DNA of 64,000 nt from Bacilli bacterium (GTDB taxonomy: Bacteria; Bacillota_I; Bacilli_A; RF39; UBA660), in NCBI GenBank assembly GCA_017536505.1, contig JAFXHG010000012.1, forward strand, positions 52,541-116,540, written 5' to 3'. This document shows, in pieces, positions 1 to 6,000 of this stretch (positions are counted from its first letter, which is position 1; each line of letters begins with the position of its first letter). The position numbers are program-made.

Positions 1-3000
1 TCTTTTCTATAATTATTCATTTTGTAAACTTTCTATATAACTATCAAAATATTCTATTCTATTATAAATCCAATTTCTTACATCTTCTATTTCTTTTTCT
101 ATATCATATTCATACCAATTATTTGAATCTCTAAGTGCTGCTCCTTTAACTAATTCATTTTTATACTTATCTAATAAATTATCAAAATATTCTTTAGTTA
201 AAACATTTTTTCTTAATTCATAATATCTATCTATTAATAATTCATTTACTTTAGTATCTTTATGTTTAAAATTAGTATAAATTTTATTATAATCGTTTAT
301 GTCTTTATTAACAAATAGTTCATTTTCATTACTAAAATTAAGTCCAAAACTATACTCCATATCCCATGGTTGTATATAAACTTCTTTATCATTTAAGCTG
401 TTCATGTAAAAATAATTGTTTTTATATAAATTATTATCTGAATTATTAATAAATGCATTTAAAATTACAATATCTATATAGTTTTCAATATTCCAAGTAG
501 AACTTATTATATCATAAGAACTATTGAAACCGGAATCATAATATTTAGATAATTTGCTTAATATTTTATTCCAAGATATAGAAAACATATCTTCGTTATT
601 AGGGTATTTAAGTTCATAGCCTAAATAAAAATCTTGATTTAGATTAGAAATATCCATATCACTTTTTACAGTATCCCAAGTTTGAGATTTTAAAACTATA
701 CTGGTATCTTGATTATTGTTTTTTACTAAATTTAATTTTCTTCTATTTACTGGCTCCGTTAATATATATAAACCAGTATATTCATTATTTATAAATAATT
801 CAACAAACTCACTATACATATTTATATTATTAAAATCATTTGATATATCATTCCATAAATCGGTTGCTAGTAAATTTCTTATTTTAGATGGATCTCTATA
901 AATACCATCTAAAATTAATGAATCCCCATAATAAAAATTAGATATATATAATTTTTTTTCTTTGGTATAGTTTTTATTATAAAAATTTATTTTATAAGAT
1001 TTTTTATTAAAAAGTTTAGAAGTATTTCCTCTTACATGAATTTTTGTATTACCTGATACTATTTTTTCTGTGTTTTTTGAATTAATATATGTAAAAGTGG
1101 AATTAGTATCTATATTAGTTATTTCTTCATTAGTAATAATATTAATAAGTGGTAAATTTGTTAATTGTATTTTAGTTTTATGATAATATTCATCATTATA
1201 AATTATAACCTCTATTTCATTACTATAATCAACTTTAATTATATTTAAAGTTTCTCCTATAATTTTATATTTAAATCCATCTTCCAATTCTAAATTTAAT
1301 ACATATATATTATTTTCATAATCTTCTGGAACCATGTGATAGAACATATTATTATTCTTATCATAGATAGTATCTATATTGTTTATTTTTAAAGTATTGA
1401 TTAAACCGTTTTTTTCTTCTCTATCTTTTATTATTTCTTCTACACTTAAGAAAGATAAAGAAGTACCAAAAATACCAAAAAAGAGAAATATTATAAATGA
1501 AATAATTAATAACAAAAATATAATAAATTTAACTTTTTTCATAATAACATCCTCCTTTTTTTATATATGGTTTCTATTGTACCACAAAAAACAAAAAAAA
1601 AGAATAATTTTATTCTATTGTAATTACTCTTTTTTTAGTTATTGTATTTCCATTAGGATCTTTTACAGTATATGTAATCATATATTTATTTGAATCTTCT
1701 AAAAGTTCAGTTGATGTAGTAATATCACAAAAGCCACTATTATCACTACAACTGACTCCAAGCATAACGTCAAAAGTTTCAATATCTTTAGTTATTGTAC
1801 TTCCTTCAGGTATGTTTATTGTAGGAGGAATTGTATCTGCAATTATTATATGTAAAGTTGTTGCATTAGCATAACCATTATTGTCTACAACACTATAATT
1901 TATTTTATATATACCAGGTTTAGAACTATCTATTTTTTCTACAACCTTATCATCAAGTAAAATGTATGATTTTATTTTATTTGTTAGATTTGTTCCATCT
2001 TTGGAAATAGCAGAAACTTCAATAGCACTAAGTTCTCTATTTAAATTTAAAGTAGTAATATATTTACCATTTGAATTAATATTTAAATTTTCTCCTGTTA
2101 GAGCAATTGTTGGCAAATCTGTTATACTAGCATCTTTTAATTTTCCCATTTCAACTGTATATAGATAATCGCCTTCTAATTTTGAATTTTTATTAGAATA
2201 TTTATATCCAGAACCTACATTATGTATGCTTATAACTAAATTATCAGGAAAAGCTTCATTTGTATCAGGATCTTTTATAGAAGCGTCTAACAATCCATTA
2301 TATTTTAATTCACCTAATGTTACATAGTTTTTTTCATTATATTCGGGTAAATATTCAATGTTTTTTAATGAAAAATCATAAGTAGCATTTAACATAGTAT
2401 TTATTTGTTTTTGATATACAGTTTCTCTACTTTGAGATAACACATCAGAAACAGAAGGATAAATTAATACGAAAATGATTGCTAATATAACTATAACCCC
2501 AAGTAATTCAACTAACGTAAACCCTTTTTCTTTCATATTACACCTCATTTTTTTGAAAAAATACTTAATATTTTAGAAAAATTAAATAAAATATTATTAC
2601 TTTTCTTCATAGCATATCCTTTTTCTAAAGCTTTACCACCAATAGTTAATGATGAAATTATTCCCATAATAATTACAACAACAACTAAATTGTTAAAACT
2701 GCTATTTTCAGCAATTTTAATAGCTATTACTGCACCAGTTGAACCAGATACTATACCACATATATCTCCAACAACATCGTTACAAAAACTTGATACCTTA
2801 TCAGCATTTTTTTTCAATTTAAGGGCCATCTTAGCTCCTTTAACTCTTCTTGCAGCCATAGAATGAAATTGTGATTCATCAGCAGTAGCAACCGCTATAC
2901 CAACCATATCAAATATGACACCAATTAATATAAATATTAAAGTTAATAGAATGCCCATTACTATTCCTACATTAGGTATAGCAATTTCTGAAATTAGTGA

Positions 3001-6000
3001 AAAAATAACGGATATTAAAAAACTAGAAATAATTATTTTAACAATCCATCCATAGTCTATAAGTTTCTTCTTTTTATTTTGTCTTTTCATATTCACTCCA
3101 TTTTATAATTGATCTAATATATTAAATTCATTAATATTATTTGTATCTTCAGTAGTCTCATTTCCTACATCTTCATTTATATTTTCTTCTCCATCATTTT
3201 CTTGTTCTATTTGATTTTCCTTCTTGGGTATTTCAATCTCTTGATCTTTATTCTCAGATACATCATTTTTATCATTTGTTTGTTCTTTCATCTCACTATT
3301 TGTTGTATCTTTATCTATATTAGTTTCAATAACATCTTTTTGATTTTTTATACCTATTATTAATAATATTGTTAATAAAATTACGATTATATAAAGTATT
3401 ATTACTATAACATAATTTTTATATTTACTTTCTTCATTTATATCAGTAAATTCTTTATCTATATTATTCATATCATCTTTCATATTATCACCATATTAAT
3501 TTTAACATAAAAATATATTTTTAACAACTAACATATTTTAAAACTTTATTATATAAAACAAATCTTTTCATTTTTTCACATATCACATTTTATATTTTAT
3601 CACACACAATTTTTAACACAAATAAAAAGATTGTTATTCACAATCTTATATTTATATGGCGTTAATATAGTTAACTTTACGTCTTAGGTCAAGTTGGATT
3701 TCCCTAAACTCTACTTATCGTTACCAATAAGCGGTTCCCCTTTAAAAAGTTCAGTATATTGTCACCAAATATACTACTTGATTGCCACTTAGTACGCACT
3801 GCAATCCTATAAAAACAACACTCTAGGGGATTTCCCCACCATCTATTTAATATTAATTCTTTTTTGCAAATAGTATTTCAAATTGCAAACTATGTAAATT
3901 CTAGCTATAAATTTACTAATTTGTTAACCAATTATCCCAACTACTCACTCAAGACAAGCTACACTACCCATAACTTTCATCACAAGGTAGGTTTAATCCT
4001 ATTTCGTATCCAGTCCGTCAGCAATAATGCGTATAGGCCAAACACAATAATAGGTCTCCACGAATGGTGGGTCATTTACATATGCCATTATGGATGCCCA
4101 ACATTCTCATTTCCAGCACTCACCCCTATCTGGGCGATAAAAGCAAGCACCAAAAGTTTCATCGATATGCTCTTTAACGGATTTTTAGCCCCGTCTTCAT
4201 AATAAATATAATGACTAGAATAATGCGCCATCAATAACTAGATTATAGCAAATTTAATCTATATTGTCAAATTGATAAAATTTACTATCTAATATATTAT
4301 ATGTTGTTTTATTTAATTATTACATTAGTATTTATCCAATTTCTTTTTCTATTAACTTAATAAATTTATTAGTATTACTTTTATATTTTTTAGGTTTAAA
4401 TGTTTTTGTTTCTTTTAATTTTTTATCCAAAGAATTAAAATCATCAAGTGCGATTATATGCCCTTTTTTAGAAAAACTTTCAATTATTTGCAACTGATGA
4501 TCATTAGTATGTTCACCAAATTCTTTTAATCGTGCGGCAGCTATTACTTTCTTATCTGCTTTTAATCCTGTTATTATAGAACCAACACCACCATGAGTAA
4601 TTAAAATATTACATTCACTAATTAGTTCGTCAAACTTTTCCATTGGGATTAAATCAAAAATTTTCATATCTTTTGATTTGAAATCAGAAGTGCAGCCAGC
4701 TTGTACAATTACCTCTTCTTTTATGTTACCACAATCAATTTGTTTTTGTACTGCTTCTAACAATCTAGTAAATTTTTTGTCTTGTGTTCCAAGTGTTACA
4801 AGTATCAATAGATCCACCCCCCATAAATAGCTTTTGGATATAATTCAAGCATACTTTCCCATTGAACTATAAATGTATCAGCAATAGGATAAACAATTCT
4901 ACCTGATAAAGTCTTTGTTTTACTGTTTGCAAATGTCTCTATAAAAATAATTTTACTTCCAAATAATTTTCCAATGTAGCACATAGGAACTGCAGTATGA
5001 GTACCAGTTGTAACAATTACTTTTGGTCTTATCTTGATATATAAGATTAAAGATTTTAAACAATTATATGGAAATTTAAACAAATATGAAAATACATGAT
5101 CTTTAGTTCCATATACTAAATAATTAACTTTTTTATGTTTGTTTTTTAAGTCTCTAGTTGATTTTGTTTTTTCAGTAATTAAAAAACTTTGATACTTTTT
5201 AAATAAAGGTTCAAGTTGCAATAATTCACTTAAATGCCCACCAGTTGATGCGATGAATAATACTCTTTTCATTTCTTCACTTCCTTGCTAAATATATTTT
5301 GAAAATAAAATTATTTGTTAAAATTAACTTAGTAATTATTTTAAAGTCAGCATGAAAAATAAAATCTTTTTTCCAACCTTTAAAATGCTTGTTTAAAAAG
5401 TTTATAATATCTTTTCTAAATTTATTAATATATTCTTTATCGTTTAATTGATAAGATATAATTAGATAATAAAACAATTTATTAATACATAATTTTTTTA
5501 GTTCTTTTTTCATATCTTCATAACAATTAATAGTTTTAGTATATTCTATTATATCATCTAATATATATAATATATCATTTACTTTTTTGTTAATAGTAAG
5601 AGTTTCTCCTTCTTCGTTTATTCTATAAAAATATAAATATTCATCTAATTTATCAATTTTCTTAGCATTAAAGAAAACTTTCATAATAGTATTTAAATCT
5701 TCATATTTTTTATTTATAGGAAATTCTATATCTTTAAATAAATCTCTTTTAAAAAGTTTATTACAAGGTCCAAAATCTATATTATTAATCATTTTAGGAT
5801 CATTATATATATTACTAGATTTTATATTATTAACAACATTTATCTTTTTTATATTTTTTGAATCAGTAAAATATTTTTTATAATTACAAACTATGATATC
5901 AGCATTACTTTTCTTTATAGTATTATATAACTTTTCATACATATCTAAATCAATAAAATCATCACTATCTACAAATCCAAGATATTTACTTGTTGCAGCT

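Follow-up and report, generated by a model that had tools for sequence, protein, structure and literature searches.

Organization of the Locus

The window analyzed here is a stretch of 64,000 nucleotides (nt) of contig JAFXHG010000012.1 (positions 52,541 to 116,540 of assembly GCA_017536505.1), and its host is an uncultured, very low-GC gut Bacilli bacterium with sporulation genes. At its beginning, in a region with a G+C content of ~20%, four minus-strand genes encode a small membrane protein, a polytopic membrane protein, a prepilin-type protein with immunoglobulin (Ig)-like domains and a CotH-family kinase-fold protein. An earlier note on this DNA had described these genes as one operon that couples CotH to a pseudopilin. 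The gene inventory of that note holds, in that all four open reading frames (ORFs) are present and tightly packed and the domains and features ascribed to each were found; chance ORFs are excluded for all four, because orthologues are conserved in diverged relatives. Two elements had been overlooked, namely an OLE (ornate, large, extremophilic) RNA gene at 3640-4247 and the continuation of the cotH unit past the window edge. The features of the locus, in the direction of transcription, are as follows.

4332..11224, minus strand: surface-glycopolymer biosynthesis cluster, immediately upstream of OLE (gene calls, Pfam families, ORFs)
4242..4270, minus strand: OLE promoter, sigma-70 type, TTGACA-17 nt-TGcTATAAT (12/12 consensus match, extended -10)
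3640..4247, minus strand: OLE RNA gene, full length (Rfam RF01071)
3617..3647, minus strand: terminator-like hairpin (AAGATTG/CAATCTT) and U-run at the OLE 3' end (folding)
3499..3527, minus strand: promoter-like element TTGTTA-17-(TG)TAAAAT ahead of the small gene (motif, conserved in relatives)
3103..3483, minus strand: small single-pass membrane protein, 126 aa (ORF, hydropathy, 14 orthologues)
2545..3090, minus strand: oapA (OLE-associated protein A), 181 aa (CNNM PF01595, DxxxD motif, upstream OLE)
1610..2536, minus strand: modular prepilin-type protein, 308 aa (N_methyl, Bact_surface_Ig-like, AlphaFold2 model)
1585..1616, minus strand: AT-rich terminator-like hairpin across the prepilin stop codon, followed by a U-run (folding, conserved)
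1576..1584, minus strand: extended -10-like TGgTACAAT ahead of cotH, followed by an AAGGAGG ribosome-binding site (motif, conserved)
13..1542, minus strand: CotH-family kinase-fold protein, 509 aa (Pfam CotH, AlphaFold2 and Foldseek)
1..20, minus strand: first 20 nt of a VTC-domain gene, which runs past the window edge

The small gene is separated from oapA by 12 nt, oapA from the prepilin gene by 8 nt and the prepilin gene from cotH by 67 nt. NCBIfam gave generic prepilin-domain matches alone and named none of the four proteins at family level. The glycopolymer cluster contains Alg13-like and Alg14-like genes, genes of the GT2 family, a Polysacc_synt flippase and a Wzy_C/GT1 fusion.

OLE RNA and OapA

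In the Rfam scan, the RNA at 3640-4247 scores 395.1 bits against a gathering score of 50 and covers model positions 1-616 untruncated; equivalent OLE genes are also found in relatives. Its promoter is the sole 12/12 consensus match within positions 1-4600. The hairpin at its 3' end (-13.6 kcal/mol, z -5.2) was equalled by none of 200 shuffles, and an analogous hairpin with a U-run lies 3' of OLE in eight related loci.

The gene for the polytopic membrane protein is on the same strand as OLE, 549 nt downstream, with one small gene between. The internally repeated G/A-rich motif that had been noted for this protein was recovered as FDMVGIAVATA / NDVVGDICGIVSG, and Pfam gave a CNNM/DUF21 match (E 1e-7). 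Its 181-183 aa (181 from the ATG, 183 from an alternative GTG start at 3096) contain no domain besides PF01595 (32 bits), CBS and CorC domains being absent. Three transmembrane (TM) segments are clear in the hydropathy profile, and the segment that bears a DxxxD motif is amphipathic. The motif itself, D107-V-V-G-D111, is situated inside an FCNDVxGDICG block that is invariant in 20 sequences, and the best PDB sequence match is CorB (7M1U), a weak one with an E-value of 0.19. OapA has been described as a four-TM membrane protein with a DxxxD motif, weak CNNM similarity and CorB 7M1U as its nearest solved relative, and the DxxxD motif does not occur in ordinary CNNM domains (PMC11332333). A survey of 90 loci with OapA homologues (80 from species-representative genomes, scanned with the homologue alignment, and 10 fetched earlier) revealed a same-strand upstream OLE gene at 85 of them. 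Because of the DxxxD block, the 7M1U match and this association with OLE, the gene is identified, from sequence and context, as oapA. Work on Halalkalibacterium halodurans, as cited in PMC12265935, has OapA binding OLE RNA at the membrane.

The locus resembles the ole-oapA loci of H. halodurans and other Bacillota in its full-length OLE gene, the same-strand oapA downstream, the DxxxD motif and the weak CNNM similarity. It differs from them in several respects. A small bitopic gene sits between OLE and oapA, whereas elsewhere the end of OLE is usually less than 100 nt from oapA, and OLE apparently has its own promoter and terminator, unlike in the known loci. The gene after oapA encodes a prepilin-type Ig protein, where 18 Oscillospiraceae and Rossellomorea loci have dxs. 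Moreover, the locus lies inside a glycopolymer cluster, while the known loci have an isoprenoid or DNA-repair context.

Among the surveyed loci, the distance between OLE and oapA reaches 1.7-5.8 kb in several lineages (L009/L013, L014, L015, L042, L175), where envelope genes are inserted: a sulfatase or lipoteichoic acid synthase-like gene, a polysaccharide deacetylase of ~415 aa, or GT2 and GtrA genes. OLE was not seen in the 5-10 kb of available upstream sequence of L016-L018 and L174. In other uncultured Bacilli, oapA is followed by an N-terminally anchored, Cys-containing helical family of ~185-215 aa (L024, L028, L029, L037, L040, L044, L048, L049, L063, L085) or by a family of ~500 aa (L025, L027, L039, L041). 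The ~185-aa bitopic family was considered as a diverged homologue of the prepilin-type Ig protein and rejected, as hhalign gave a probability of 24% on the TM segment only.

The Small Protein and the Prepilin-Type Ig Protein

The gene between OLE and oapA encodes, as described previously, a small bitopic acidic membrane protein: hydropathy analysis of its 126 aa gives one TM segment and an acidic tail. Across 14 orthologous loci the N-terminal part and the TM core are conserved, the core being (D/E)F.DI.KE.K.K.YI-IVIILYIIVIIL..LLVLGIKNQKD, and the very acidic tail is variable. No Pfam or NCBIfam family scored above the cut-off.

The gene directly after oapA encodes a 308-aa protein that starts with MKEKGFTLVELL; the start of a longer, 312-aa form (1610-2548) is not used by orthologues. 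Pfam matches to N_methyl (30 bits against 21.2) and Bact_surface_Ig-like bear out the prepilin leader and the Ig repeats that had been recognized at this gene. The class III signal reads MKEKG/FTLVE; a comparison of 40 sequences showed no variation at F6, T7, L8 and E10 and a conservation of at least 90% at G5. In the AlphaFold2 model (predicted local distance difference test score, pLDDT, 88.5; predicted template modeling score 0.73), a helix at 8-58 is predicted to be followed by a small head with strands at 69-128 and by two Ig-like sandwiches at 143-232 and 239-307. By structure matching of the model, the domains resemble the tandem adhesin-type domains of InlK, SraP, Rib and cadherins. 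With 165 hits, the family is a small one.

In all 18 related lineages, the gene was found in no pil, com or gsp cluster; its neighbors are oapA on one side and either cotH or a gyrB-like gene on the other. A GspE-type Walker motif was absent from the window, and no pilus ATPase, peptidase or assembly family was found among the window ORFs scanned. The protein is comparable to the modular pilins PilB and PilC of Streptococcus sanguinis (PMC8179133, PMC9934059), which likewise combine a class III signal, a pilin module and grafted C-terminal modules in a monoderm host. Here, in contrast, the grafted modules are two Ig-like domains, and the gene lies outside a pil/com cluster and is predicted to be co-operonic with oapA. 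A metagenome scan with the alignment of this family, which was swamped by the generic GFTLVELL pattern, returned remote prepilins only, none beside OapA, OLE or CotH, and added no orthologous loci.

Two more prepilin-type (N_methyl) genes are encoded in the window, at 21071-22249 (minus strand; with BspA-type leucine-rich repeats) and at 28185-29207 (minus strand), and their neighbors are housekeeping genes, including miaB-like, yceG, obg and spoU. It appears that several modular surface proteins of this organism are equipped with class III signal peptides. In L016, a short prepilin-type protein of 155 aa without Ig modules is encoded (10629-11096) directly after a more distant oapA (55% identity), and neither the small gene nor OLE is present within 9.9 kb upstream. 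This arrangement may be a reduced or ancestral form.

CotH and Its Cassette

The assignment of the gene at 13-1542 to CotH was confirmed with the Pfam hidden Markov model PF08757 (E 6e-35, 121.7 bits against 23.8, profile positions 1-321 of 322). Hydropathy gives it one N-terminal TM/signal segment. The AlphaFold2 model (pLDDT 88.8) has as its best Foldseek match Bacillus cereus CotH (5JDA; E 3.7e-17, TM-score 0.72 on the target, ~400 aligned columns), relative to which it has ~165 extra N-terminal residues that form the TM/signal segment and a beta-sandwich domain. PDB sequence searches with CotH, either as a single sequence or as a five-sequence profile, yielded nothing useful. D369, N375 and D394 (in PWD) are invariant in 36 CotH sequences. 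The D369-D394 spacing is 25 residues, similar to the 23 between the catalytic residues D228 and D251 of Bacillus subtilis CotH (PMC7821199), the comparison being one of spacing. The CotH kinase fold and the Pfam domain are common to this protein and the spore-coat CotH of B. subtilis and B. cereus (PDB 5JD9/5JDA), whereas sequence identity is 18-19% and the partners differ, VTC and DUF4956 here and cotG and cotB there.

The ATG of the VTC gene (window positions 20-18) overlaps the cotH stop codon by 8 nt, ATGAATAATTATAGAAAAGA reading MNNYRK. Beyond the window edge, on the identical contig identified by exact-protein look-up, the VTC gene is followed by a DUF4956 gene and then by a gene for a 229-aa protein. 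Pfam supports VTC (E 9e-35) and DUF4956 (E 2e-9); by hydropathy the VTC protein is without a TM segment and the DUF4956 protein has at least three. The 229-aa protein gave no Pfam match, so that DUF4832 is not the fourth member, and most relatives are without a fourth gene.

A conserved accessory set of cotH, polyphosphate polymerase, DUF4956 and DUF4832 genes is contiguous with Gram-positive Pel loci (Whitfield et al., 2020, PMC7112168). It is known from streptococci, clostridia and bifidobacteria (PMC7112168) and also occurs in Clostridium perfringens NELoc-2 (PMC2879425). As in that set, cotH, VTC and DUF4956 are contiguous here, ordered alike and tightly coupled, beside an exopolysaccharide-type cluster. 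On the other hand, DUF4832 is missing and the 229-aa protein of no family takes its place, the adjoining cluster is of the Wzx/Wzy type and not pelDEADAFG, and the OLE and oapA units are wedged between cluster and cassette. In three lineages, a toxin-antitoxin-like pair (MqsA antitoxin/helix-turn-helix and SocA/Panacea) is situated between the cassette and a gyrB-like gene (L005, 12440-13791; L011, 14549-15864; L092, 11321-12289).

Conservation of Gene Order and Transcription Signals

Eighteen distinct lineages of uncultured gut and rumen Bacilli were gathered via OapA homologues, a genome scan and homologues of the prepilin-type Ig protein. The prepilin-type Ig proteins of these lineages share only 38-63% identity. 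Nevertheless, oapA lies directly upstream of the prepilin gene in 17 of the 18, with a gap of -4 to +8 nt, and wherever sequence exists the small gene lies directly upstream of oapA, L091 excepted. The cotH-VTC-DUF4956 genes directly follow the prepilin gene in eight lineages and are absent from the site in ten, GCA_949841305.1 among them, where a gyrB/parE-like gene usually comes next; all four genes of the earlier note are syntenic in seven of the 18. Given this synteny and the CotH match, neither of the outcomes that would have refuted that note occurred in full. The flanks vary around an unchanged small-oapA-prepilin block: the upstream glycosyltransferase sets differ, and some lineages have deacetylase or sulfatase genes inserted downstream of OLE and ahead of the small gene. 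In L091 (GCA_947625635.1) the order is OLE, deacetylase, oapA, obg-spoU-rimM-trmD and then small-prepilin-Ig-cotH-VTC-DUF4956. The small gene and the prepilin gene are thus a constant pair, oapA is almost always between them, and the cassette is present in just under half of the lineages.

The built-in terminator scan requires at least three G-C pairs, and its sole result was a hairpin inside OLE. AT-rich hairpins were read by eye, folded and compared across loci; the signals described here are sequence-based. The hairpin at the prepilin stop codon (-8.3 kcal/mol, z -2.4) and its U-run recur in each of the 12 related loci examined, irrespective of which gene, cotH or the gyrB-like one, comes next. 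Ahead of cotH, TGnTAnAAT is kept in L005, L007, L011, L015, L091 and L092, together with a strong ribosome-binding site. Together, the hairpin and U-run, the extended -10 element and the ribosome-binding site predict that cotH is transcribed separately. The TTGTTA...TGTTAAAAT promoter and a GGTGAT ribosome-binding site before the small gene are kept in L005, L007, L011 and L092. When the gyrB-like gene follows the prepilin terminator, it is preceded by a TTGACTTT-17-TAnAAT promoter. When the cassette is present, another terminator lies 3' of DUF4956 (here, of the 229-aa gene), and it is followed by the same TTGACTTT...TATAAT gyrB-like promoter as in cassette-less loci. The signals predict three transcription units, namely OLE, small-oapA-prepilin-Ig and cotH-VTC-DUF4956, the last of which would behave like a self-contained cassette that has either been inserted or stayed at a site flanked by the prepilin terminator and the gyrB-like promoter.

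Interpretation of the Three Predicted Units

We consider it probable that the interval consists of three adjacent units with their own predicted promoters in a glycopolymer locus, that the cotH cassette is facultative, and that the adjacency of CotH and the pilin is mere neighborhood. The four-gene operon coupling CotH to a pseudopilin is not supported as a unit, because the polytopic gene is oapA, the partner of the OLE gene immediately upstream of this block; because cotH is translationally coupled to VTC and belongs, with DUF4956, to a published triad (PMC7112168); because ten of the 18 lineages keep small-oapA-prepilin-Ig without the cassette; and because a conserved hairpin and U-run, an extended -10 element and a strong ribosome-binding site lie before cotH.

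The first unit would be the gene for OLE RNA, served by a consensus promoter and a hairpin terminator of its own. The second would be a three-gene operon in which oapA lies between the genes for the small bitopic acidic protein and for the modular prepilin-type Ig protein. The small and prepilin-type proteins would be made together with OapA and placed in the same membrane, the Ig modules outside the cell, and they may either assist the OLE particle as accessories that face the envelope or form a pair for surface display encoded in the same operon. The third unit would begin with cotH, as the first gene of a self-contained cotH-VTC-DUF4956(-229 aa) cassette. Of its predicted products, the first is a kinase-fold protein anchored N-terminally and located outside the cytoplasm, the second a cytoplasmic enzyme that resembles polyphosphate polymerases and the third a polytopic membrane protein; they may act on the envelope by modifying a surface polymer or a surface protein. 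By analogy with the eukaryotic VTC complex, as generally known, polyphosphate from the VTC enzyme could be passed through DUF4956 for use by the cassette. Functional links among the units are suggested by gene context.

Several observations weigh against this division into three units or against a role of the second unit with OLE. AT-rich hairpins may leak, and read-through from OLE to cotH is possible. The cassette may be ancestral here and have been lost repeatedly, which would mean a long co-residence with the prepilin gene. In L091, oapA is separated from the small gene and the prepilin gene by obg-spoU-rimM-trmD and the pair remains with cotH, indicating that neither pairing is obligatory: linkage to OapA can be dispensed with, and some link between pilin and cotH is conceivable. 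The two other prepilin-type genes of the window adjoin unrelated housekeeping genes, and a physical association of the small or the prepilin-type protein with OapA or OLE is putative.

Alternative Explanations

The strongest alternative is that the gene order was inherited without functional meaning: the prepilin-type Ig protein would be one of several scattered modular pilin-type adhesins, the small protein its partner, and oapA would lie between them by chance. We regard this as possible, though it is the less likely account. The location of the two further prepilin-type genes beside obg and yceG/miaB-type housekeeping genes is what such scattering would produce, and L091 indicates that oapA is removable from the pair. 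The arrangement is also limited to one clade, the remote prepilin relatives are never beside OapA, OLE or CotH, and the fold matches are adhesin-type tandem Ig domains. However, 17 of the 18 lineages keep the order despite 38-63% prepilin identity and reshuffled flanks, and the junctions are 8 nt long or overlapping, with one promoter and one terminator for the block. In addition, the slot after oapA in other uncultured Bacilli is again occupied by N-terminally anchored exoproteins of unrelated families, which hints at a recurring requirement.

It is unlikely that the four genes are one operon in which CotH works with the prepilin protein, for example as a pilus-associated kinase module that phosphorylates a pilin, pilus or secretion component. 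Such a module would account for the common strand and the short gaps throughout, for the prepilin-cotH adjacency in eight of 18 diverged lineages and for L091, where small-prepilin-Ig stays joined to cotH, apart from oapA; CotH and the prepilin protein are also both predicted to be extracytoplasmic, and there is no GC-rich terminator between their genes. Against it stand the ten lineages with small-oapA-prepilin-Ig and no cotH at the site, and the conserved hairpin, U-run, promoter and ribosome-binding site that separate the two genes. Furthermore, it is VTC, and not the prepilin gene, to which cotH is translationally coupled, a separate terminator closes the cassette, and streptococci, clostridia and bifidobacteria carry the triad without pilins (PMC7112168).

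The proposal of a coat or exosporium module, with CotH acting as in Bacillus spores and the prepilin-type protein as a spore appendage, is very improbable, since the B. cereus CotH chains, of 358-359 residues, have neither the N-terminal TM/signal segment nor the extra beta-sandwich domain, since the promoter-like element is of the vegetative, sigma-A type and since streptococci and bifidobacteria, which do not sporulate, also have the triad (PMC7112168), even though the CotH fold is present, SpoIIGA, a sigma factor and YqfD are encoded in the window, and yabP and yqfD lie beside the cassette in L007. A defence or mobile-element reading was dropped, as the genes are chromosomal and syntenic with gyrB-like and parC-like genes, with no integrase nearby.

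Other Features of the Window

Two large secreted proteins with cadherin-like beta-sandwich domains are encoded at 15041-18426 (minus strand), one of which has a C-terminal type I dockerin that hints at cohesin-dockerin surface assemblies. At 57352-61547 (minus strand), spoIIGA, an adjacent sigma factor gene and yqfD are found, and a 6S RNA (60130-60309) is flanked by yqfD and a gene for an RNase T-like exonuclease. The metagenome-assembled genome is probably that of a spore former despite its G+C content of ~20%. The ribosomal protein S2 gene at 45749-46792 (minus strand) encodes a product of 347 aa with a C-terminal Rho_N-like domain, an unusual extension. T-box leaders are located at 43624-44038 and 49564-49747 (minus strand), one after tandem tRNA-Asn genes and ahead of gatA, gatB and a class II Asp/Asn-tRNA synthetase gene, and the other ahead of a glutamyl-tRNA synthetase gene.

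Implications for OLE Biology

OLE and oapA, like the cotH triad, were already known, and the prepilin protein is of a known kind, the modular pilins. What is new is the predicted clade-specific small-oapA-prepilin-Ig operon, which has a Wzx/Wzy-type glycopolymer cluster on one side and a facultative cotH cassette on the other; a full-text literature search found no paper naming both OLE RNA and pilins. The facultative occurrence of cotH-VTC-DUF4956 beside a Wzx/Wzy-type cluster widens the known context of this triad. If the adjacency is merely inherited gene order, the region is ordinary.

According to a 2025 model by Lyon, Breaker and colleagues, OLE spans the membrane and may need additional membrane-associated proteins (PMC12265935). 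We tentatively suggest, as a speculative extension, that the OLE ribonucleoprotein particle could include the small acidic and prepilin-type Ig proteins as lineage-specific subunits in the membrane; their TM helices would pack against OapA and the RNA, while the Ig modules would extend to the cell wall or the surface glycopolymer. The predicted oapA operon of this clade has retained, over deep divergence, genes for two additional single-pass proteins, one of which would expose Ig modules. These two proteins are concrete candidates for such additional membrane proteins, and the locus is a moderately interesting lead for OLE biology.

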